A stretch of 32,000 nt of DNA from Pseudocitrobacter corydidari (lineage in GTDB: Bacteria; Pseudomonadota; Gammaproteobacteria; Enterobacterales; Enterobacteriaceae): the NCBI RefSeq assembly GCF_021172065.1, contig NZ_CP087880.1, forward strand, positions 1,308,583 through 1,340,582, in the 5' to 3' direction. The stretch's first letter is position 1; every line of letters begins with the position of its first letter. Under the pieces are notes generated by a model, which saw only the letters and a program-made list of their open reading frames with translations, did not search any database and was not told the origin of the DNA. Below are positions 3,298-27,086 of the stretch, one piece after another. The position numbers and the translations under genes are program-made.

Positions 3298-4518
3298 ATG
3301 CTTACCACCATTATTTATCGCAGCCATTTATGTCACGACGTTCCCGTCAAGGCCCTTGAGGGAATGGTAGCGGCCGCTAACCTTAGAAATGCTGAGGCAA
3401 ATGTCACCGGAATACTGCTCTTTAACGGCACGCATTTTTTTCAATTGCTTGAAGGCCCGGAAGAACAGGTGCGACGGATTTATCACGACATTTCACAAGA
3501 CCCGCGCCACTACAATCTTGTAGAGCTTTTATGCGATCACGGCCCAACGCGCCGATTTGGCAAAGTGGGCATGGAGCTCTTCGACCTGCGCGAGCATGCC
3601 CGGGAAGAAGTGCTGCAAAACGTGCTGGATAAAGGCACATCTCCGTATCAACTCACCTATAACGATCGTGCATTGCAGTTTTTCCGCACTTTTGTCGAGT
3701 CGACAGAGAAGGGCAATTACTATGAAATTCCGCCAGCCGAGAGCTGGGAGTTTGTACCGACGACAATCAGCGATGAACTGGGTCCTTATAAAGCCTCTAC
3801 TGCCTCTGAGTATACCCTGGCCCTGCAACCGATCATTGATCCCCTGGCGCAGGAAATCATCGCCCTGGAGGCCTTAATCTTCACCCACGACGGTGAGATT
3901 TCGAATACCTATTTCGAGGGTTTATCCGGCGACGATATTTATGAAATCGATCTCACCAGTAAGAAAGTGGCGTTTGAGATGGTGAGGGAGCGCGATCTGC
4001 GTGGTCAAATACTGTCCGTTAATCTGTTGCCAATGACCCTGGTAAAAATCCCTCACGCCGTGGATTATCTGCTGCATGAGATAAAAATTAACGGTCTGGT
4101 GCCCGAGCAAATTGTCGTTGAATTTACTGAGCACGAGGTGGTTTCCGGTATTGAGGAGTTTACCGCTGCGGTACGTGTACTGAAGTCTGCGGGTATTAGC
4201 GTGGCCATTGATAATTTTGGTGCCGGCTTTGCCGGGCTGCAGTTGCTGGCGCAATTTCAGCCTGACAGAATCAAGATTAATGCTGAACTGATTCGCGATG
4301 TTCATAAAAGTGGCCCGCGCCAGGCGATTGTACAGGCCATTATTCGCTGCTGCCGTTCGCTGGAAATTGTGGTATCTGCCCTGGGTGTTGAAAAAGCGGA
4401 AGAGTGGATGTGGCTTGAATCTGCGGGCATTTCTCATTTCCAGGGCAATTTATTTGCCCGACCCTATCGCCAGGGTACGCCTTCCATCTCGTGGCCGGAA
4501 AAGAAAGAGTTATTGTAA
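3298..4518 (+). CDS. bluF: BLUF-EAL blue-light sensor, anti-repressor of BluR
   Basis: 406 aa. The N-terminal BLUF domain (MLTTIIYRS...GILLFNGTHFFQLLEGPEEQV) and the degenerate EAL domain (...QPDRIKINAELIRDVHKSGPRQAIVQAII...) are collinear with E. coli YcgF/BluF. Confidence 0.9.
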   Translation: MLTTIIYRSHLCHDVPVKALEGMVAAANLRNAEANVTGILLFNGTHFFQLLEGPEEQVRRIYHDISQDPRHYNLVELLCDHGPTRRFGKVGMELFDLREHAREEVLQNVLDKGTSPYQLTYNDRALQFFRTFVESTEKGNYYEIPPAESWEFVPTTISDELGPYKASTASEYTLALQPIIDPLAQEIIALEALIFTHDGEISNTYFEGLSGDDIYEIDLTSKKVAFEMVRERDLRGQILSVNLLPMTLVKIPHAVDYLLHEIKINGLVPEQIVVEFTEHEVVSGIEEFTAAVRVLKSAGISVAIDNFGAGFAGLQLLAQFQPDRIKINAELIRDVHKSGPRQAIVQAIIRCCRSLEIVVSALGVEKAEEWMWLESAGISHFQGNLFARPYRQGTPSISWPEKKELL

Positions 4519-17156: not shown

Positions 17157-17423
17157 ATGAAGAGCTTCCCGATGATCTACAGCCCAACGCAATTAGCGAA
17201 TGCAATGAAACTGGTTCGTCAGCAAAATGGCTGGACGCAGAGCGAGCTGGCGAAAAAAATCGGCATAAAGCAGGCGACCATTTCCAATTTCGAAAATAAC
17301 CCGGATAACACCACGCTGACGACTTTTTTTAAGATTTTACAGTCACTTGAGCTCTCAATGACGCTATGCGAAACAAAAGACGCTGCGCCTGAATCTACTG
17401 ACCAACAGGATCTGGAGTGGTAA
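17157..17423 (+). CDS. hipB: HipB antitoxin (Xre-type HTH)
   Basis: 88 aa, almost identical to E. coli HipB (IYSPTQLANAMKLVRQQNGWTQSELAKKIGIKQATISNFENNPDNTTLTTFFKILQSLELSMTLC). The stop overlaps the hipA ATG (TAATG). Confidence 0.95.
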   Translation: MKSFPMIYSPTQLANAMKLVRQQNGWTQSELAKKIGIKQATISNFENNPDNTTLTTFFKILQSLELSMTLCETKDAAPESTDQQDLEW

Positions 17424-18736
17424 TGCCTAAACTTGTCACATGGATGAACAATCAGCGAGTCGGTGAGTTAACGAAACTGGCCAACGGTGCGCATACGTTT
17501 AAATATGCGCCGGAATGGTTAGCCAATCGTTATGCCAGGCCATTGTCACTTTCGCTACCGTTGCAGGTGGGGAATATCACCTCGGATGCGGTTTTTAACT
17601 TCTTCGATAACCTGCTGCCTGATAGCCCGATCGTGCGCGACAGGATCGTTAAACGTTATCGCGCAAAATCAAAGCAACCTTTTGATTTATTGTCAGAAGT
17701 CGGTCGAGATAGCGTAGGCGCAGTGACGTTATTACCGGAGGATGAAGCGGTGACAAATCCGGTTATGACATGGGAGAAATTAAGTGAGGCAAAGCTTGAA
17801 GAGGTGTTGTCGGCTTATAAATCAGATATCCCGTTAGGAATGATTAACGCAGAAAATGACTTTCGCATCTCCGTTGCCGGCGCGCAGGAAAAAACCGCGC
17901 TGCTCAAAATGGGCGCTGACTGGTGTATTCCGAAGGGAATAACGCCAACGACGCACATTATCAAATTGCCGATTGGCGAAATCAGACAGCCTAATGCGAC
18001 GCTCGATCTTAGCCAAAGCGTTGATAATGAATATTTTTGTCTGCTGCTGGCGAAACAACTCGGGTTGAATGTTCCCGGCCCCGAAATCATCAAAGCGGGA
18101 AGGGTGCGCGCGTTGGCGGTCGAACGCTTCGACAGACGCTGGAATACTGAACGGTCAGTTTTACTCCGCTTGCCGCAGGAAGATATGTGCCAGACATTCG
18201 GTTTACCGTCATCAGTCAAATACGAATCTGACGGAGGCCCGGGTATCGCGCAAATCATGGCTTTTTTGATGGGGTCCAGCGAGGCGCTGAAAGATCGCTA
18301 TGATTTTATGAAGTTTCAGGTGTTCCAGTGGTTGATTGGCGCAACGGATGGCCATGCAAAAAATTTCTCCGTATTTATTCAGGCTGGCGGCAGTTATCGG
18401 CTCACACCATTTTACGACATCATTTCGGCATTTCCGGTTCTTGGCGGTACGGGAATACATATCAGCGATTTGAAACTGGCCATGGGGCTTAATGCATCCA
18501 AAGGCAGAAAAACGGCAATCGATAAAATTTATCCGCGACATTTTTTGGCGACAGCAAAGGCACTGAAATTCCCGGAAGTACAGATGCGTGAAATCCTGAA
18601 TGAGTTTGCAGAGCAGATTCCCGCAGCACTGGATAACGTGACGACTGCATTACCGACAGATTTCCCAGAGAACGTGGCGATGGCAATCCAGACCAATGTG
18701 CTGAGGTTGCATGGGCGGTTAAGCCGGGAGAGATGA
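17423..18736 (+). CDS. hipA: HipA serine/threonine kinase toxin
   Basis: Starting at the ATG at 17423 gives MPKLVTWMNNQRVGELTKLANGAHTFKYAPEWL..., collinear with E. coli HipA. The ISVAGAQEKTAL autophosphorylation loop and the catalytic ATDGHAKNFS motif are present, and Gly22 is the wild-type residue. Confidence 0.95.
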   Translation: MPKLVTWMNNQRVGELTKLANGAHTFKYAPEWLANRYARPLSLSLPLQVGNITSDAVFNFFDNLLPDSPIVRDRIVKRYRAKSKQPFDLLSEVGRDSVGAVTLLPEDEAVTNPVMTWEKLSEAKLEEVLSAYKSDIPLGMINAENDFRISVAGAQEKTALLKMGADWCIPKGITPTTHIIKLPIGEIRQPNATLDLSQSVDNEYFCLLLAKQLGLNVPGPEIIKAGRVRALAVERFDRRWNTERSVLLRLPQEDMCQTFGLPSSVKYESDGGPGIAQIMAFLMGSSEALKDRYDFMKFQVFQWLIGATDGHAKNFSVFIQAGGSYRLTPFYDIISAFPVLGGTGIHISDLKLAMGLNASKGRKTAIDKIYPRHFLATAKALKFPEVQMREILNEFAEQIPAALDNVTTALPTDFPENVAMAIQTNVLRLHGRLSRER

Positions 18737-18823
18737 GTTTGAAGGAAAAATGGGCTTTTGGCGGGGATAAACGACCTGGGCAATCATAACCACAAAACAC
18801 CGGATTCTGCCTGGTTCTATGTT

Positions 18824-18856
18824 GGTGCGCATAATGTACGACTCGTTATGTTGAAA
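18824..18856 (+). other. attL hybrid dif-like site 1: XerC arm GGTGCGCATAA, 11-nt spacer TGTACGACTCG, XerD-like arm TTATGTTGAAA
   Basis: Compared with the E. coli dif GGTGCGCATAA-TGTATA-TTATGTTAAAT, the XerC arm matches 11/11, the first 4 nt of the spacer are identical, and the XerD-like arm matches 9/11 but is displaced by 5 extra nt. Confidence 0.7.
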
Positions 18857-18890
18857 AGGCCGCTGCGAAAATCGAATCCCGCAGCGGCCT
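18857..18890 (-). terminator. 11-bp GC-rich stem-loop; probable terminator of the 244-aa gene and tip of the att palindrome
   Basis: AGGCCGCTGCG (18857-18867) pairs with CGCAGCGGCCT (18880-18890) around a 12-nt loop. On the minus strand it is followed by TTTTC. Confidence 0.55.
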
Positions 18891-18919
18891 CTTTAGCATA
18901 ACGTCATTGTGCGTACCAA
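18891..18919 (-). other. Inverted dif-like site 2 (minus strand GGTACGCACAA-TGACG-TTATGCTAAAG)
   Basis: The reverse complement of 18891-18919 matches the dif XerC arm 9/11 and the XerD arm 9/11, with a 5-nt spacer. It is complementary to site 1. Confidence 0.6.
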
Positions 18920-18921
18920 TT

Positions 18922-19656
18922 TTATTCCTCAATAAAAAACCAATCTTTTTCATACCATTTATTGTGCATAGATAAACGTATAATAGTATCTCTCCATTCA
19001 CTAGGGCTTAAACTCTCTTTGTTTATGAACATCATATTGGCTATGGTATGATGAAAAACTAACCAAGAGCTTATTCCCGCACTTACTTGCTCGTCTATTT
19101 TTTCTATTTCAGCCAAATATTTATTTATCGTTGATTCCGTAACACCAATTGCGCTAGCTGTTTCAGCTAGGGTTTTTGACTCTATAATCATTTGATTTGC
19201 AAGTAGTTTTTTCTTTGTTGTGCTATATCTTATAATGTGTCTTTTTATTATGGCTTCTACTTTTAGAAGTATCTTATACTCATCGCTTTTTTGATATTCA
19301 ATCCATTTTAATTCATCCTCTTTTACTTTCGCATCAAATGGGATTTTATACTTATCTATGAAATCACTTGCGGCTGATGTGCTACTAAATATTTTTTTGT
19401 TGAGTTTTATATTTAATTTTTCTGATATTGTTAATATATACTCCATTTGCCGTTTGCTTGGCGGTTTTTCATCAAAATAGAGCATCCCTCTTAAAAAACA
19501 CTCTATTTTTTCTGCTTCGTTATTTTTGATGCTTGTTAATTGAGATTTTTTGTTTTTTTCAGATATAGAGTTATACAAAGATTTCGGTATTTCTATTAAA
19601 AAATCGCTGTTTCCAACTATTAATTTTACTATTTCTGTTTCAATTTTTAACATCAC
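18922..19656 (-). CDS. Hypothetical protein, AT-rich, with a possible C-terminal-half HTH (prophage accessory gene)
   Basis: 244-aa ORF with no competing frame. KTLAETASAIGVTESTINKYLAEIEKI looks like a sigma-70 region 4/LuxR-type HTH. I recognise no catalytic motif. Confidence 0.6.
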   Translation of the reverse strand: MMLKIETEIVKLIVGNSDFLIEIPKSLYNSISEKNKKSQLTSIKNNEAEKIECFLRGMLYFDEKPPSKRQMEYILTISEKLNIKLNKKIFSSTSAASDFIDKYKIPFDAKVKEDELKWIEYQKSDEYKILLKVEAIIKRHIIRYSTTKKKLLANQMIIESKTLAETASAIGVTESTINKYLAEIEKIDEQVSAGISSWLVFHHTIANMMFINKESLSPSEWRDTIIRLSMHNKWYEKDWFFIEE

Positions 19657-19758
19657 TGACTTCCTTATTGCTATCTTGTATTGGGGTATATCTTTCTACC
19701 GCGCAGCGGTTCGGGGTTCAGTGACACCCGAACTTTACCGTGGTTTCCCACGGTATTT

Positions 19759-20286
19759 TCACTTTTTCCCCTTCGGCTGCGGAAGGTTTAGCATCTTCAG
19801 CGTTTCTTCTTCTGTTGTGTAATTGTAGCGTTTGGTTTTAACACTGTTTATTGTGCGATCCAGATTCAGTAGGTCTATAAATTTTTCAAGAAAAACAACA
19901 TCATCTTTGTCTATGTCTCGGATCGCTGCCATAAGGCGCGTTTTTGCGGCAGCTTCACCTGCGGCATGACCTTGTAGCTTAAAATCAACACCGTAACCAA
20001 AAGCTGTCATATCTTCGCTAACTCCCTCAGGCGAAGGCAGGGTTGACTCACCAAATGCAAGCCACACTGGATTTTTTCCTGTCGCTTTAGCTATTTGTCT
20101 GATTTCTATCAATTTTGGTTCTCTTTCACCAGACGCCAGCCTTTTGAGGGTACTGACGCTGATACCCGTCTCATTTTCAATATCGTCATACGTGAAATTT
20201 TGAATAATGGATAGGCGTATACGTTCCGCGCACTCTTTGTCTGCTGCCATGTCTTCGGTCTTCTCGTACTGGTTATAAGGTCTCAA
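19759..20286 (-). CDS. XRE/Cro-CI-type HTH regulator (probable prophage repressor)
   Basis: 175 aa. IENETGISVSTLKRLASGEREPKLIEIRQIAKATGKNPVWLAFGE is an HTH_XRE signature. The gene is divergent from the replication gene. Confidence 0.7.
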   Translation of the reverse strand: MRPYNQYEKTEDMAADKECAERIRLSIIQNFTYDDIENETGISVSTLKRLASGEREPKLIEIRQIAKATGKNPVWLAFGESTLPSPEGVSEDMTAFGYGVDFKLQGHAAGEAAAKTRLMAAIRDIDKDDVVFLEKFIDLLNLDRTINSVKTKRYNYTTEEETLKMLNLPQPKGKK

Positions 20287-20445
20287 TCTTAACCTCCTTT
20301 TTTCAATGCTGAACTTTAAGTGTCAGTTGTGATGTTTTTTGGTGTCAGTATTGTTGACGTTCAGTATGTTTGGTAATAGCATTGTTGACACCGATTAGTA
20401 TCAATACTGAGCCTTGCGGTTCACCTGGACAAACTGAGAGATTCT
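20287..20445. promoter_or_regulatory. Divergent repressor/Rep control region with repeated motifs (candidate operators and promoters)
   Basis: - GTGTCAGT at 20320-20327 and 20342-20349.
- ATTGTTGAC at 20350-20358 and 20381-20389, each containing a TTGAC -35-like element.
- TCAGTATTG (20345-20353) is the inverse of CAATACTGA (20402-20410). Confidence 0.4.
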
Positions 20446-21561
20446 ATGTTTTACGACTGGTTAACTATCGAACAGGATTTCGGCTATCAGTTGCCGATAC
20501 TGAGCGATGTTGCTTATCAGCGTATACATCTTGAAAGCGGCGAGGCTTCAGCACTAAGCCAGCCCACATTCCAGCATAAGGGATCCTTTTGTGATGTCAT
20601 TTCGATCTCAATACGAGGATCATTGCTTAAGGTCTCAGGTAACCCGTCACGTTGGGGGAGGCTTGATAATCTTTTTGGTCTTAAGAGTGTTGATGCCTGC
20701 GTTTATGTTTACAACGAAATTCTTTCTTCTCTTGGTTTGCCAGTTTTTACAAAATGTACTCGGTTAATGCCAAGGCAAGGGAAAGAAAATGAAGCTGTTT
20801 CATTAGTCGCTGACGGTGCATGCATCAGAGAGTTACACATTACTTCAAATCGTTCTGTTGGAAAAGGTAACGAAGACGCCTATATTTCAGGCCTGTCTAC
20901 ATTACCATACAGAAATAGCGTTCCACGGCTCCATAGTAATGGTAAATCTGTTGACTGGTTATCTAAGAAAGGAAATGCCAGCCTTATTTACCCAACAGTA
21001 TATAACAAAGCACATGAACTAGCATTGCATTCACTACAAAAAATAAAATCAAAATTTGGTGATAACTCTAAAGAATATAACTACTTAATTAAAATAGTTG
21101 AGTATTGTTCAGAAAATGGCATTGTAAGATTTGAGCAAAAGTTAAAATCTAGATTTCTACAAAAATATCATTATTTATATTGGGGCTTATCAGATTACTC
21201 ATGCTTGAACGAATTACATAACCAATTTGTTAATCTTGATAAAACATTATCGGTGACTGCTATGGATTTTGATACTATCAGTGAACATTTAATCTCTCAG
21301 GGTGTTGTCGATAGTACAAGGTCGGCAAACACTACAGCTATGTATGCAATACAGTGGATGCATGGACATTCATTCGATTTTAATAAAAAACAAGTACAGA
21401 CGCACAGAGCAAGACTTAGAAAAATAGGCATTGATATCGCTCAACGTTGCAATATAGCAAAATTCAGCCCTGTTATTGTGAAAAATAAAAGAGATGTTGT
21501 TGTTTCTGATTGTAAAATTCCAGACTGGTATCATAAAGCAAGTCATTTAAAAGTTGCCTAA
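20446..21561 (+). CDS. Rolling-circle replication initiation protein (pII/RstA-like)
   Basis: 371 aa and the first gene of the plus-strand inovirus module. The N-terminal MFYDWLTIEQ resembles the conserved DWL(T/S) start of Rep_trans/phage replication initiators. The call rests on position and size. Confidence 0.65.
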   Translation: MFYDWLTIEQDFGYQLPILSDVAYQRIHLESGEASALSQPTFQHKGSFCDVISISIRGSLLKVSGNPSRWGRLDNLFGLKSVDACVYVYNEILSSLGLPVFTKCTRLMPRQGKENEAVSLVADGACIRELHITSNRSVGKGNEDAYISGLSTLPYRNSVPRLHSNGKSVDWLSKKGNASLIYPTVYNKAHELALHSLQKIKSKFGDNSKEYNYLIKIVEYCSENGIVRFEQKLKSRFLQKYHYLYWGLSDYSCLNELHNQFVNLDKTLSVTAMDFDTISEHLISQGVVDSTRSANTTAMYAIQWMHGHSFDFNKKQVQTHRARLRKIGIDIAQRCNIAKFSPVIVKNKRDVVVSDCKIPDWYHKASHLKVA

Positions 21562-21575
21562 AGTGGAGAATATGA

Positions 21576-21893
21576 ATGTCAAATTATGGGTTGTTTGTTA
21601 AAGGTAAGATGCTTGGCGCTCGTCAGAGAAACAAGGTGAATGGTCAGGGCTATTATAATGAAATCGGTATTGGCCTTGAAATACCTGATGGTTTTGGTGG
21701 TACAAAGCAGGACCAAATTATTATTCGAGTTTCACAAAATCTTGTGAATGCAGGCCTAATGAATCAGGCGAATACTTTTATCGGGAAATTAGTTCAAATT
21801 CCCGTGTATGTTCGCGCGTGGTCAATGGAGGGCAGGGAAGGTGTAACTTATAATTTTTCTTCTGACGGCGGCATTATAGAGATAAAGGGATAG
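21576..21893 (+). CDS. Putative ssDNA-binding protein (pV-like)
   Basis: 105 aa, immediately after Rep as in most inoviruses, with an RBS (GGAG) upstream. The call is by position and size only. Confidence 0.45.
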   Translation: MSNYGLFVKGKMLGARQRNKVNGQGYYNEIGIGLEIPDGFGGTKQDQIIIRVSQNLVNAGLMNQANTFIGKLVQIPVYVRAWSMEGREGVTYNFSSDGGIIEIKG

Positions 21894-21933
21894 GTGTGTG
21901 TCAATAAGGTTTCGTTAAATCTAATAAATTATT

Positions 21934-22203
21934 ATGTCAGATGAGATAATCATTAAGACTAAATATTGCAATCCGAATATGAGCTTTGGTAGCCCTGACG
22001 GATGTGATGAAGTGACTTTGAAATTACCGAAGTCAGAAGTTGTTAAATTACAGTCTTCGGTAGTTACTCAGGATAAGCCTGTTCCCGATATTGATTATTC
22101 AGTCGCGGCGCAATTCTGGGGACTGGCTTTTACGACAACCTTTTTCCTGTGGCTCTTTGCAAAGGGAATAGGTGAAATTCTTAAACACATAAGAAATGCA
22201 TAA
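21934..22203 (+). CDS. Small membrane protein, possible minor coat protein
   Basis: 89 aa with a C-terminal hydrophobic helix (FWGLAFTTTFFLWLFAKGIG) and a basic tail. It is located just before the major coat gene. Confidence 0.4.
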   Translation: MSDEIIIKTKYCNPNMSFGSPDGCDEVTLKLPKSEVVKLQSSVVTQDKPVPDIDYSVAAQFWGLAFTTTFFLWLFAKGIGEILKHIRNA

Positions 22204-22214
22204 AAGGAGTTTTT

Positions 22215-22463
22215 ATGTTTGGTAAGACTAAACAGGCTTTAACCCGTATTGGTGCTTTTACTCTGGCTGTAGCTGCACCTGCTGTATTTGCTGCTGAAGG
22301 TGATGTTGTTGGTGGTAAAGGTATTGACCTTTCGCCGCTGACCAATAGCGTTAATTTCGGTTCCGTCCTGACCGGGATTATGGCGGTAGCGGGTTCTCTT
22401 ATTGTTCTGTATGCAGGTTCTGCGGGTGTCCGCTGGATTTTGCGTATGGTTCGTGGCGCTTAA
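22215..22463 (+). CDS. Major coat protein (pVIII-like)
   Basis: 82 aa with a strong RBS (AAGGAG). The signal peptide ends AVFA|AEGD. It has an acidic N-terminus, a hydrophobic core (VLTGIMAVAGSLIVLYAG) and a basic C-terminus (RWILRMVRGA). Confidence 0.8.
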   Translation: MFGKTKQALTRIGAFTLAVAAPAVFAAEGDVVGGKGIDLSPLTNSVNFGSVLTGIMAVAGSLIVLYAGSAGVRWILRMVRGA

Positions 22464-22474
22464 TTCATAAAGGT

Positions 22475-22500
22475 AAGGGGCGTAACAGCCCCTTTATATT
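22475..22500 (+). terminator. Stem-loop terminator right after the major coat gene
   Basis: AAGGGGC, loop GTAACA, GCCCCTT, then TATATTT. Ff phages have a terminator in the same position after gene VIII. Confidence 0.55.
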
Positions 22501-22548
22501 TATGGCTCAATATCTTTTTGATTTTATGTGTTTTTTATGGGGGCTTTT

Positions 22549-24411
22549 ATGCGCCTGGGCGGTCATTCAGGGTTTGGAAAGTTAGGTATTACTATATTGT
22601 CCTTAATGGTTTCATCCGGTGTACACGCTGATGCAGTAACAGCAGACGGATTTGGACGTGTAATTCAGCAAATGGTTGAAACCCGTGAAGCTCAGGTTGT
22701 TTCTCAATCTGCGGGGCGTGTATTTGCAACGGGTGCCAGTTCTCTTGGTATGGGCGCGGGTATTGCTGTCGCTGCGGAGGTTATACGCGAACGTCCTGAC
22801 GTTTTTGATTCAATCCGCATGTGTGGCGAGAAAGTGGGTAATCCTCAGCTTTGTACCGGAACGTCAGTTTTCGCGGCTGCTTATGGGCTTGCGAAGCATA
22901 CGATTGACGATTCGATATCTACGGGTATTTCAAGTTTTGGCAGTAATATGATGGCTGCCGGACAGACAACATGGGGATTGCTGGGGCAGGCGGCGGGCGT
23001 TATTTCCGTTGCTGACCTTGCTTTAAAGCAGGGCGCAAAAGCTGTTGAATATATTACAAGTGGAATAAAACAGGATGATGGATCTTATTTACTTAATTTG
23101 CCCAATGGTGCTACTGTTACTTCTTATGTTGCACCTTCACCTAAAAGCCCTGTTGCTGTTTATCTGCCCTCTGATGCTACTGGCTTTTCTGCAAAGAAAA
23201 TTCAGGATACGATAGACCCGTATAATCAGCAGGTTAAACCTGTTCAGGTTGCGCCTACATATTATAATGTTGATGCACCACCGCCGATAAGTCAGCCATT
23301 CCCGAATGATGTATATCGTGTGTCAGTGAAAGGTACTAAATATCCTTATTCGGCTGATATCAGGGATACAAAGGGAGATGCTGTTCTTGTTAGCGATAAT
23401 CCTGTAATGATTGCGCTTTATAAGTCGATTAATGGTTATTCTCATTCCAATGTGACTTATCATGAGGCGTCTGACGACAATAACTTACATATCAGAATGC
23501 CCAGAAATTTTAAGGTTTATTCGGTTTCTGTTAAAGACTTTCAGTATGTAAAGCCGAACCCTTATTTTGGTGGATATTCATCGATTGTAACTGTGGTTTT
23601 ATCTGTTGCGACAACAACAGTTACGCTTGAAAATTCATGGGATTTATGTAAAAGCGAGAAAGTACCTGTGCCGGGCAGTACGGCTGATAATCCCAAAACG
23701 CAGTGGAAAAGTATTTGCCACCCTGAGAAGGCTGTGTATAAAACAACTAATGATGTTCAGGACGTTAAAGACCAGATATTTTTTAATACAAATTTTGATA
23801 CATCAAACTTACCTCAGGTAATTAATGGTGAGGTTATTGATAATATAGATTTCAAGCCGGAGGAACTGTTAAACCCGGCTGCGCTGGTTAATCTTATTAA
23901 TGGCCTTGCAGGTCAGACTGTTGTTCAGGAGGGATATCAGGGTATACCGCTTGATAAACCTTTTACGGCAGCTGAACTGACGGCTGCAGCTAATGCAGTT
24001 GGCGTAAAACTTGATAAGGGTTTGCTTTATAGTCCGGTTGTCGTTCCTCAGTCGTGGGTTAATGCCAGACCCGGTGCAGGAACGGATACAGGTGTACACC
24101 CTGGTACAGGTACAGATACCGATATTTCTGTTGATTTAGGCGAAGACCCCGGCATTAAATCGCCGGAACTTGAAAAGCCGCCTACTGGTGAGGAAATTCT
24201 CAAGCCGATTACGGAATTAATGCCGGACATTAAAAACCTGAGTATTTCATCGAAGGATGTACAGTGCCCTGTGTGGTCGTTCGAACTCTGGGATAATAAA
24301 TATTCCATTGATTCACACTGCGAACTTCTGGAAAAAATCAGGCCCCTTTTGAAAGCGGTATTCCTGCTTATCTGGGGCATTATTTCTCTGCGTATCATTC
24401 TGACGGCGTGA
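22549..24411 (+). CDS. Receptor-binding/adsorption minor coat protein (pIII-like)
   Basis: About 620 aa. It has a signal peptide (MRLGGHSGFGKLGITILSLMVSSGVHA), a Gly/Thr/Asp-rich linker (GAGTDTGVHPGTGTDTD) and a C-terminal membrane anchor (LLKAVFLLIWGIISLRIILTA). Alternative starts lie at 22528 (GTG) and 22537 (ATG). Confidence 0.7.
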   Translation: MRLGGHSGFGKLGITILSLMVSSGVHADAVTADGFGRVIQQMVETREAQVVSQSAGRVFATGASSLGMGAGIAVAAEVIRERPDVFDSIRMCGEKVGNPQLCTGTSVFAAAYGLAKHTIDDSISTGISSFGSNMMAAGQTTWGLLGQAAGVISVADLALKQGAKAVEYITSGIKQDDGSYLLNLPNGATVTSYVAPSPKSPVAVYLPSDATGFSAKKIQDTIDPYNQQVKPVQVAPTYYNVDAPPPISQPFPNDVYRVSVKGTKYPYSADIRDTKGDAVLVSDNPVMIALYKSINGYSHSNVTYHEASDDNNLHIRMPRNFKVYSVSVKDFQYVKPNPYFGGYSSIVTVVLSVATTTVTLENSWDLCKSEKVPVPGSTADNPKTQWKSICHPEKAVYKTTNDVQDVKDQIFFNTNFDTSNLPQVINGEVIDNIDFKPEELLNPAALVNLINGLAGQTVVQEGYQGIPLDKPFTAAELTAAANAVGVKLDKGLLYSPVVVPQSWVNARPGAGTDTGVHPGTGTDTDISVDLGEDPGIKSPELEKPPTGEEILKPITELMPDIKNLSISSKDVQCPVWSFELWDNKYSIDSHCELLEKIRPLLKAVFLLIWGIISLRIILTA

Positions 24412-24421
24412 GGGAGGCGTT

Positions 24422-24709
24422 ATGTTCGGTATTCTGGTTTCAGCCTTTAACGTGGCGCTTGGTTTTGTGCTACGAACTGTGGTTGTTAAATTCATTCTGT
24501 TTTTTGGCCTGTATTTTGTCGTACAGGCGTTTGTTCCGGTTCTGGCGTCACTGTTGCCAAAATCTGTTGATATTGCCGGGTTATTTTCCTCACTGCCTGA
24601 CAGCGTATGGTTTTTCGTGAATATGTTTATGGTCACGGAAGGAATTAAATTGATGTTTTCAGCATTGTTAACGCGTTTTATTATTCGTCGCATTCCTCTG
24701 ATTGGTTAA
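24422..24709 (+). CDS. Hydrophobic minor coat protein (pVI-like)
   Basis: 95 aa with multiple hydrophobic helices and an RBS (GGGAGG). It lies between the pIII-like and pI-like genes, as in Ff and CTXphi (Ace position). Confidence 0.55.
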   Translation: MFGILVSAFNVALGFVLRTVVVKFILFFGLYFVVQAFVPVLASLLPKSVDIAGLFSSLPDSVWFFVNMFMVTEGIKLMFSALLTRFIIRRIPLIG

Positions 24710-24712
24710 TTT

Positions 24713-25747
24713 ATGGCTATTTCTGCGTATGTGGGCATTCCGGGTAGCGGTAAATCTTACGAAGTAGTGGCAAGCGTCATTATTCCCGCCTGTATCGCGG
24801 GGCGTCGCATTGTCAGTAATATTTACGGCCTTGCCACGCAAAGTATTTATGATTACTGCGTTGATATTAAAAAGGCAGACAGGGAGTCTCTTGGTGAAAT
24901 TTTACTTGTTCAGAATGAAGACGTTCAGAACGATAACTTTTTCCCTTACAAAACAGACTCAGGCATTGCGGAGGATACGTTCTGTCGTCCGGGGGATTTA
25001 ATTTGTATTGATGAAGCATGGCGTATATGGGAGAACGATAAGGGCATCCCTGCCAATCATCGTTCTTTCATTGCTGAACATCGTCATTTTGCCGATGAAA
25101 AAACGGGTATTACCTGTGATTTAGTGGTTATGAATCAGTCCGTTGCCAACCTTCCGCGATTCATCAAAGACCGGGTGGAAACCACGTACCGCATGAGTAA
25201 GCATGTGGCGCTGGGGTTGCACAACCGCTACCGGGTGGACGTATTTACGGGCATTAAACTGTTTAAGTCTAACCTGACGAACAGTTATCAGAATAAATAT
25301 GACAGGGCGATATTTCCTTTATATAAATCCCATGAAAACGGGCAGGGAAGGGAGCTTGTCACGGATAAACGCCAGAATATTTTCAGTTCCAAAATGCTGT
25401 GGTTTAAAGCCGCTGGGTTACTGATTCTGGCGGTGATTGCCATTTTTTATCTGTTCTGGTTCTTTACGTCTAACGGTAATTCAGAGCCTGAACAGCAGAC
25501 TAAAGATTTACCCGCCGCAAATAATTCAGCGTCTTTTGTACCTACCGCGCCAGCTAAGCCCGTTGTGTCGGACAAATGGCGACTTGCCGGACGGCTTAAA
25601 CGCGATGGTCAGGCATGGGTTGTTGTTGCAGACACGTCAGGCAGATTGCGTATAGAGCCGGCTTCGCAGTTCAGCTTTGACGGCATGATGATGACGGGTG
25701 AAATCGACGGCGAAACGGTGACGGTTTATTCAGGGGCGATACGATGA
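24713..25747 (+). CDS. Zot/pI-family phage assembly ATPase
   Basis: 344 aa. It has a Walker A motif (GIPGSGKSYEVV), a Walker B-like motif (LICIDEAW) and a central TM segment (LWFKAAGLLILAVIAIFYLFWFF), which is the Zot/pI architecture. Confidence 0.9.
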   Translation: MAISAYVGIPGSGKSYEVVASVIIPACIAGRRIVSNIYGLATQSIYDYCVDIKKADRESLGEILLVQNEDVQNDNFFPYKTDSGIAEDTFCRPGDLICIDEAWRIWENDKGIPANHRSFIAEHRHFADEKTGITCDLVVMNQSVANLPRFIKDRVETTYRMSKHVALGLHNRYRVDVFTGIKLFKSNLTNSYQNKYDRAIFPLYKSHENGQGRELVTDKRQNIFSSKMLWFKAAGLLILAVIAIFYLFWFFTSNGNSEPEQQTKDLPAANNSASFVPTAPAKPVVSDKWRLAGRLKRDGQAWVVVADTSGRLRIEPASQFSFDGMMMTGEIDGETVTVYSGAIR

Positions 25748-27006
25748 AGCTGATAACAGGTTTACTTTTTTTACTGGTTCCGGGGCTGGTTATGGCGAAG
25801 GGCGTCAGTCTGGAGCTCAACGCTGTTCCGCTGCCGCAGGCGCTGAACATGATTTACGTTCAGGTGTTCGATAAGCCGTTTATGCTTGACCCGGAGCTTG
25901 CCAAATCCGATAAGGTGGTGACGTTCCGTATCACGCCGGATATCGATGAACGGGCATTTATTAAGCGCTATCTCGGCAATATGAACATTGCGATTTATAA
26001 CAAACAGGGCATTGACTACGTGGCGCCGTTCACGCCGAAAGCGTATGTGCCACCGCAGGAGACCTTTGTTTATCGTCCGCGCTTCCGTTCCGTGGCGTAT
26101 CTTTCTGACATTCTGGCCGGGCAGTTTACCGGGCAGTTTAACAGCCAGCGTAATTCGTTACCGTCCGGGCAGATATCACCGGAAGCGGCTGTAGCGGGTA
26201 CGGCATCGGACTTCATGAACCGTACCGGGGATGTGCTGGTTTATTATGGCCGGAAGTCAGAAATTAAGCGGTTGCAGACGCTGTTACCGCTGATTGATAC
26301 CGCTTCTGAGGAAGTGATTGTGGCCGCTTACGTGTTTGAGGTTCAGACCAGCGAGCGTAACGGCTCAGGGTTGGCACTGGCGGCGAAGCTGCTTTCCGGT
26401 AAGCTGAATATTCAGATTGGCGCATCGGGTGGTTTTGACAACTTTATCCGGGTGAATACAGGCTCTCTCGATGCGTTGTATGAGTTGTTCAGGACGGACA
26501 GCCGTTTTCATGTCGTCAGTTCGCCGAGGCTCAGGGTGAAGGATGGCGCATCAGCCACGTTTTCAGTCGGTAATGAGGTTCCGGTGCTGGGCCAGGTGAG
26601 TTACGCCGATAACAGGCCGATACAGTCGATTGAATACCGTTCCAGCGGCGTTATTTTGGACGTGAAACCGCAAATCCGGACTGACAATATTGACCTCGTA
26701 ATCAGGCAACAGCTTTCCAGCTTTGCGAAGACGGATACGGGCGTCAATAACAGCCCGACGCTGATTAAGCGCGAGGTCAATACGGAGGTATCAGCGGCTG
26801 ACGGGGATATCATTTTGCTGGGTGGTCTGGCTGAGTCGAAGGTCACGAACGCCGATACCGGATTTAGTTTTCTGCCAAAAGGCTGGCTCACCAGTTCATC
26901 TGACGAGAAGAATAAGACGGATATTCTTGTCGTGTTACAGGCGAAAAAAGTCAGGCGCGCCAGCGCCGCGCACGCACCGAGTTCCCACGAGGAGCGCGCG
27001 CGGTGA
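25744..27006 (+). CDS. Phage secretin (pIV-like, GspD/PulD superfamily)
   Basis: 420 aa with a signal peptide and secretin C-domain motifs (VVSSPRLRVKDGASATFSVGNEVPVLG...ILLGGL). Its start overlaps the pI-like stop (ATGA). Confidence 0.9.
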   Translation: MKLITGLLFLLVPGLVMAKGVSLELNAVPLPQALNMIYVQVFDKPFMLDPELAKSDKVVTFRITPDIDERAFIKRYLGNMNIAIYNKQGIDYVAPFTPKAYVPPQETFVYRPRFRSVAYLSDILAGQFTGQFNSQRNSLPSGQISPEAAVAGTASDFMNRTGDVLVYYGRKSEIKRLQTLLPLIDTASEEVIVAAYVFEVQTSERNGSGLALAAKLLSGKLNIQIGASGGFDNFIRVNTGSLDALYELFRTDSRFHVVSSPRLRVKDGASATFSVGNEVPVLGQVSYADNRPIQSIEYRSSGVILDVKPQIRTDNIDLVIRQQLSSFAKTDTGVNNSPTLIKREVNTEVSAADGDIILLGGLAESKVTNADTGFSFLPKGWLTSSSDEKNKTDILVVLQAKKVRRASAAHAPSSHEERAR

Positions 27007-27086
27007 TGGTGGCGACGGGGTGACGTGATGGTATATCCGGTTTTAATGTCGTCAGGTATGTAGGGCGTGTATTATGTTTTTATCTT

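Follow-up and report, generated by a model that had tools for sequence, protein, structure and literature searches.

The question raised by this locus is how a filamentous prophage whose scanned ORFs revealed no integrase or recombinase domain came to be inserted at the dif locus of its host, Pseudocitrobacter corydidari. The window analysed here is a stretch of 32,000 nucleotides, and the left junction between chromosome and prophage within it is occupied by an imperfect palindrome of 98 nt. The original prediction took this palindrome to be a phage attachment site of the CTXphi type, in which two inverted dif-like sites would come together as a forked hairpin in single-stranded DNA. The data described below make it probable that the palindrome serves as attP for a filamentous prophage without an integrase (an IMEX) at host dif, with a CTXphi-type mechanism the most likely route of entry.

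The prophage and its att palindrome

The features of the locus are as follows:

17157..18736, plus strand: host hipB-hipA, left of the prophage
18822..27831, plus strand: prophage copy 1, 9,010 bp
18822..18919, plus strand: att palindrome at the left chromosome-prophage junction, 98 nt; identity with the inter-copy junction starts at 18822
18824..18856, plus strand: site 1, with XerC arm GGTGCGCATAA (18824-18834), 11-nt spacer TGTACGACTCG (18835-18845) and XerD arm TTATGTTGAAA (18846-18856)
18858..18889, plus strand: inner G+C-rich clamp GGCCGCTGCG / CGCAGCGGCC, a 10-bp stem with a 12-nt loop (18868-18879)
18891..18917, minus strand: site 2, inverted, with XerC arm GGTACGCACAA (18917-18907), 5-nt spacer TGACG (18906-18902) and XerD arm TTATGCTAAAG (18901-18891)
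18922-19656, minus strand: ORF of 244 aa with no assigned function; copy 2 equivalent at 27932-28666
19759-20286, minus strand: HTH regulator, prophage copy 1
20446-21561, plus strand: gII, prophage copy 1
21576-21893, plus strand: gV, prophage copy 1
21934-22463, plus strand: small coat genes, prophage copy 1
22528-24411, plus strand: gIII-like gene, prophage copy 1
24422-24709, plus strand: gVI-like gene (DUF2523), prophage copy 1
24713-25747, plus strand: Zot/gI, prophage copy 1
25744-27006, plus strand: secretin/gIV, prophage copy 1
27832..27929, plus strand: att palindrome at the copy 1/copy 2 junction, identical to 18822-18919, with its sites at 27834-27927
27832..32000, plus strand: prophage copy 2, 100% identical at an offset of 9,010 and running past the window end

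The 9,010-bp unit is a complete inovirus, and it forms a head-to-tail array of at least two copies that are 100% identical over this period up to the window end. The hipBA genes on its left are about 86% identical to those of E. coli, and since these neighbours flank dif in E. coli, the insertion in the window lies at the dif locus. The same order of hipBA, attL, prophage and dif is also seen in E. coli relatives. The recurrence of the palindrome at 27832-27929 had been pointed out previously, and the two copies are indeed identical; the second occurrence is the phage's own attP context, as expected for the packaged circle. A BLUF-EAL (BluF/YcgF-like) gene (3298-4518, plus strand) with a ymgB-like neighbour is also found less than 15 kb from hipBA and dif.

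The minus-strand ORF of 244 aa, which has no Pfam or PHROG match, stops three bases past the att hairpin. The region just 3' of att differs in almost every relative and therefore looks like a hot spot for accessory cargo. Further on, between two minus-strand ORFs, lies a 60-bp segment (19700-19759, and again 28710-28769) that matches the major intergenic region of phage If1 at 96.7% identity; the If1 counterpart lies about 220 nt past gene IV. The segment contains two small hairpins, and its probable role is that of a complementary-strand origin or of a packaging element. When the whole prophage and att were used as queries against INPHARED, the 60-bp If1 segment was the only match and att itself had none; YpfPhi and CUS-1Phi evidently have no free-phage entries in that collection.

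From 18822 to 18919 the palindrome is ordered TTGGTGCGCATAATG-TACGACT-CGTTATGTTGAAAAGGCCGCTGCG-AAAATCGAATCC-CGCAGCGGCCTCTTTAGCATAACG-T-CATTGTGCGTACCAA. Only four sites composed of a dif-like XerC arm and XerD arm are present in the 32-kb window, and these make up two inverted pairs, one per att copy. The arms of sites 1 and 2 match dif, which reads GGTGCGCATAA TGTATA TTATGTTAAAT in E. coli relatives, at 9-11 of 11 positions. As claimed from the outset, neither site is canonical as duplex DNA, the arms being 11 bp apart in site 1 and 5 bp apart in site 2, as against 6 bp in a canonical site. The proposed sharing of TGTA between the start of the site 1 spacer and that of dif is likewise borne out by the dif sequence in the E. 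coli relatives, these being the first four bases of the spacer TGTATA, and central-region homology is confined to the XerC side. The point of XerC cleavage and crossover is predicted to fall between 18834 and 18835.

Folding and conservation of the hairpin

If the plus strand of the att region (18815-18925) is folded in silico as single-stranded DNA, the XerC arms pair with each other, the XerD arms pair with each other and a bubble forms on the central region. This forked hairpin is stable, as had been anticipated, with a folding energy of -31.2 kcal/mol and a z score of -7.94, and none of 200 shuffled sequences folded as well. The minus strand of the att region likewise gave a good fold, at -28.2 kcal/mol (z = -7.0), which speaks against taking the fold as proof of the mechanism. 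In an 800-nt single-stranded context the mean pair probability was 0.96 for the outer stem and 0.80 for the inner stem. A recount gave exactly the pairing originally described, namely 13 Watson-Crick and two G.T pairs in the outer stem (18822-18836 with 18905-18919), and 19 Watson-Crick pairs, two G.T pairs and one A/C mismatch in the inner stem (18846-18867 with 18880-18901). The 12-nt terminal loop also stood; the bubble, described as 9 nt opposite 3, had to be revised to 7 nt (TACGACT) opposite 1 nt (T), because the centroid fold also pairs CG at 18844-18845 with CG at 18902-18903. Pairing of the arms does not in itself prove that the substrate is single-stranded, since any two inverted protein-binding sites will pair. 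An Rfam scan of the palindrome returned generic hairpin matches below threshold only.

Related att loci were fetched from viral and genome collections with patterns that described site 1 only, namely its XerC arm, then a spacer exceeding the canonical length, then the beginning of the XerD arm. Nearly all of the loci selected in this way carry the inverted site 2 and adopt the same forked fold; there are four exceptions. Three of them (L023, L035 and L032) are chance matches that have no partner site and were set aside. The remaining exception (L012; IMGVR_UViG_2548876521_000001, ~4419-4480) is a true relative, 97-99% identical to the window phage, in which a deletion extends from the att terminal loop to the If1-like intergenic segment (window-phage positions 52-876). 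It has lost site 2, together with the 244-aa minus-strand ORF, so the hairpin could not form.

An alignment of 32 distinct hairpins (A1) was examined for signs that base pairing itself is maintained. In this alignment 94.9% of the cells are paired, and 11 pairs have changed on both sides, compared with 3.5 +/- 0.9 in shuffles (0/500 reach 11) and with 0-2 in slid controls. In L040 and L046 the G+C clamp has been swapped for a different but complementary sequence, an instance of compensatory change, and in L003/L019, L025 and L029 the hairpins between the arms are wholly different. Column entropy, calculated for the stems without the columns fixed by the search pattern, is 0.19 bits at paired positions versus 0.86 bits in the unpaired bubble and loop (p = 6e-6). 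The TGT at the start of the spacer is invariant in 32/32 variants, although its third base, T, was not required by the search. Moreover, the strand that bears site 1 is more stable than its complement in 16/16 sequence clusters, which include five independent hairpin architectures. In the window this is the coding strand and therefore, as for inoviruses, the packaged strand.

Parts of this signal may have other sources. Covariation of the outermost pairs may arise because each arm follows the sequence of the host XerC site, and at left junctions the 5' arm comes from the host; covariation of the inner stem would equally suit an RNA terminator. In the stems G.T exceeds A.C by 100 to 34 when cells are counted, but by only 11 to 7 when positions are counted, which is not significant; this excess is not independent evidence, and C-to-T deamination of a single-stranded genome could yield it. 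The strand bias was judged from the energy difference across the clusters instead.

Across the variants the spacer measures 9-12 bp in site 1 and 5-7 bp in site 2. The main cassette has spacers of 11/5 or 10/5 nt, the divergent hairpins L003/L019, L025, L029 and L040 have 9/7, 10/6, 9/7 and 12/6 nt, respectively, and CTXphi has 12/7. Added together, the two spacers of a hairpin come to 15-19 nt, a hint that the geometry of the bulged central region is constrained.

The conserved block is sharply bounded. Precisely where the hairpin ends on its 3' side, conservation falls from 0.85 to 0.44, and 32 different downstream contexts follow the cassette among 49 loci. It is present in Y. pestis, Enterobacter, Erwinia, Phytobacter, E. 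coli and about 50 viral contigs, and at a coverage of at least 80% it is found in 176 of 5,426 complete E. coli genomes (about 3%). The att region was without annotation in every RefSeq match inspected. Two contigs, titled Actinomadura monticuli (L019) and a Candidatus Nanosynbacter MAG (L017), carry att cassettes of enterobacterial type within E. coli-like flanks, and contamination or mis-binning is the most likely explanation.

Copies of the cassette on plasmids were considered as working attP sites and rejected, as they are truncated fossils. On E. coli plasmid NZ_CP072977.1 (12615-12685; L064, 3001-3071) only the inner hairpin and site 2 remain, site 1 having been lost beside an IS200 fragment, and the remnant lies directly against a minus-strand gene of the 'STM4504/CBY_0614 family', in the vicinity of macB/tolC-like genes. 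The same type of remnant occurs on about 450 other large E. coli plasmids and seems to be an IMEX fossil passed down in a plasmid lineage. A second, 2.2-kb remnant lies near iroB on an IncF plasmid of K. pneumoniae (CP128789.1; L059, 3501-5712). In its att cassette the site 1 XerC arm has been replaced (ACTTCGCTTAA). This remnant also contains HTH genes and, at 97% identity, the final 920 bp of the window phage; its right end lacks any Xer arm.

Junctions, mechanism and alternatives

In the window, attL is a hybrid in which the chromosomal flank and XerC arm are followed by the 11-bp phage spacer, as the original prediction had it. The right junction of the array lies beyond the window end, so the predicted regeneration of an intact dif at the distal junction was followed in relatives, where it holds. 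In E. coli A37 the phage exists as a circle of 7.4 kb and also as an array in the chromosome. In the circle, the phage end is joined through GGTGCGCATAA to the phage spacer, and the inter-copy junctions are the same as this circle junction; at the chromosomal attL, the host flank is joined through GGTGCGCATAA to the phage spacer; and at attR the phage end is followed by GGTGCGCATAATGTATATTATGTTAAAT, an intact dif. The junctions in E. coli MS20655 follow this pattern as well, again with an intact dif at attR. Judged from these junctions, the crossover fell somewhere in the stretch formed by the XerC arm and TGT, which is what cutting by XerC at the boundary between arm and spacer should produce. 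At the 18822 junction, host and phage are identical over the XerC arm as far as TGT, so that this part could come from either.

Together, the occurrence of the partner site in the survey, the covariation, the conservation of stems over loops, the strand bias and the attR of the relatives support the reading of the palindrome as a forked-hairpin attP in the style of CTXphi. By this mechanism, site 1 and the inverted site 2 would anneal in the packaged or rolling-circle plus strand. A duplex XerC arm and a duplex XerD arm would thereby form around a bulge of 7 nt opposite 1 nt, in a hairpin closed by the 10-bp G+C clamp with its 12-nt loop. Host XerC and XerD would then bind, XerC would cut after GGTGCGCATAA, and a single strand would change places with the top strand of dif, an exchange presumably stabilised by the TGT(A) that the two have in common. 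The resulting pseudo-Holliday junction would be turned into an integrated prophage by replication, leaving on the left a dead hybrid site with an 11-bp spacer and on the right an intact dif. As neither duplex phage site should be usable by Xer, new phage DNA would have to be made by rolling-circle replication running through adjacent copies, and the tandem array in the window is consistent with this. The single-stranded substrate, catalysis by XerC only and resolution by replication are the inferred steps of this scheme. In the accessible literature we found no experiment on single-stranded DNA integration, or on use of a folded strand, by enterobacterial XerCD. One published observation counts against a CTXphi-type mechanism: YpfPhi is reported to superinfect preferentially between resident copies (PMC4266046), a preference that the classical model did not predict.

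The most serious alternative is that XerC catalyses a crossover between dif and the double-stranded replicative form for which site 1 suffices, as in phages of the VGJphi type, and that the hairpin is irrelevant or serves another purpose. A duplex crossover at site 1 would give the same junctions and the same prophage orientation, and circular double-stranded forms do exist (L056). However, Xer sites such as dif, cer and psi work with spacers of 6-8 bp, and the site 1 spacer is 9-12 bp in all variants. Nor would a duplex reaction account for a site 2 that accompanies site 1 in nearly all loci chosen without reference to it, or for the covariation, the stem-versus-loop conservation and the plus-strand bias of the hairpin. 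In addition, the attP of VGJ-type phages is a single site (PMC4246890). Integration through duplex site 1 is therefore considered unlikely.

It is less probable still, and in our view hardly to be expected, that the palindrome is some other cis element, either a bidirectional intrinsic terminator or a packaging signal or complementary-strand origin hairpin, with dif-like arms that are incidental. The position of the palindrome, between the plus-strand late genes and a minus-strand ORF that stops at 18922, would suit a terminator, as would the 10-bp G+C stem followed by TTTT on the minus strand and TCTTT on the plus strand. The packaging signals of Ff phages are also long imperfect hairpins, and covariation of the inner stem suits any hairpin function. 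Incidental arms are nevertheless difficult to reconcile with matches to dif at 9-11 of 11 positions and with an exact chromosome-prophage junction at the dif locus. The If1-like segment at 19700-19759 is, moreover, the better candidate for an origin or packaging element. The terminator scan made no call at the palindrome, the inner stem having been missed because its 12-nt loop is longer than 8 nt. A terminator in the inner stem would in any case be compatible with the attP role and is no alternative to it; the inner clamp, which has an A/T-rich XerD arm end on either side, possibly has a second role as a bidirectional terminator between convergent units. Chance or an assembly artefact, raised only because the window contains a perfect tandem duplication and supported by nothing else, can be dismissed, given that none of the 200 shuffles folds equally well, that the cassette is found in several genera, in about 50 viral contigs and in 176 complete E. 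coli genomes, and that such tandem arrays are annotated in finished genomes.

Relationship to known phages and wider significance

With the palindrome taken as a CTXphi-type attP, its closest counterpart is the att region of YpfPhi. An alignment proposed in the original prediction showed 97/98 positions to be identical between the window and Y. pestis NCTC5923 (L016), the only difference being an A in Y. pestis in place of the T at 18914. The T converts a G/A mismatch to a G.T wobble. By literature account, CUS-1Phi of E. coli O18:K1:H7 has the same ~98-nt att cassette, and CUS-1Phi and YpfPhi are reported to be 99% identical outside their accessory regions (PMC7307601). Like the window phage, YpfPhi integrates at dif in tandem copies, two to four in number; its insertion rebuilds dif at the 3' end (PMC4266046), as is also seen in the E. 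coli relatives with this type of cassette. The backbones are unlike: in a comparison that covered 4.2 kb of the Y. pestis prophage in L016, the window phage shared, beyond att, no more than an 80%-identical piece of gV and a few weak segments of 66-87% identity. Its structural module is 95% identical to that of the E. coli MS20655 prophage, which has yet another replication module. The window phage is thus not YpfPhi, and is a mosaic backbone carrying a common cassette.

A CTX-type reading of this cassette was published between 2005 and 2014, and the site is not new. The encapsidated YpfPhi genome was described as containing a potential inverted pair of XerC/XerD sites that may act like the CTXphi structure (PMC4266046); the YpfPhi and CUS-1Phi att regions were interpreted in the same way, citing Val et al. 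2005 (PMC3089051); and both phages were listed in the CTX class (PMC4246890). As the same cassette, differing by one base, had already been described for these two phages, the attP as such is ordinary.

Comparison with CTXphi itself shows a shared plan. Both phages have two inverted dif-like sites with a long and a short spacer (12 and 7 in CTXphi, 11 and 5 here), pairing of the arms in the plus strand around a central bubble, and homology to dif on the XerC side only (TGT). Both also have an irreversible layout, with a dead attL and, as seen for the present type of cassette in the E. coli relatives, an intact dif, and both have tandem arrays and no integrase. In contrast to CTXphi, whose hairpin is about 150 nt with about 90 between the sites, the window hairpin is 98 nt with 34 nt between the XerD arms. 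Its bubble is 7 opposite 1, compared with roughly 9 opposite 4 as judged from published CTXphi sequences (PMC3089051). Furthermore, the window phage belongs to an enterobacterial host with an E. coli-type dif, and there is no att homology beyond the Xer arms. IMEX of the VGJphi and TLCphi types resemble it in exploiting XerCD and dif without an integrase, but have single duplex sites with near-canonical spacing and integrate reversibly (PMC4246890), whereas the window phage has two inverted sites with spacers of 11 and 5 bp. UPphi belongs with dif-integrating tandem inoviruses of E. coli and relatives and, like the window phage, has reverse-oriented accessory ORFs just past att, but its IKe/I2-2-like backbone is 7.56 kb as against 9.0 kb (PMC7307601). 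The description of UPphi refers only to 'a copy of the dif site', and the inverted second site goes unmentioned there (PMC7307601).

What the present analysis adds is modest, and consists of the covariation, the strand bias, the sharp edges of the module and its prevalence of about 3% in complete E. coli genomes. Judged from sequence, the residual novelty would lie in an att module that appears to be compact, sharply bounded and widely exchanged. No biochemical test of a CTX-type mechanism outside Vibrio was found in the literature located. The findings should nonetheless help annotation, which routinely overlooks prophages of this kind together with their att sites.

For the biology of the organism, the window contains a dif-integrated tandem inovirus that exploits the Xer system of its host. 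A more tentative extension, for which the 32 distinct downstream contexts and the compactness relative to the CTXphi hairpin speak, and of which no explicit account was found in the accessible literature, is that the ~98-nt cassette might be a self-contained, portable integration module, swapped between many unrelated inovirus backbones of enterobacteria and doubling as a bidirectional terminator, with a bulge that tunes integration. We regard this as a speculative possibility, and would sooner bet against it. If it were true, one possible route of exchange would be the formation of hybrid genomes by rolling-circle replication across mixed tandem arrays, and the nearly free variation of the 6-7 bulged spacer bases might tune the efficiency of integration or the choice of target.
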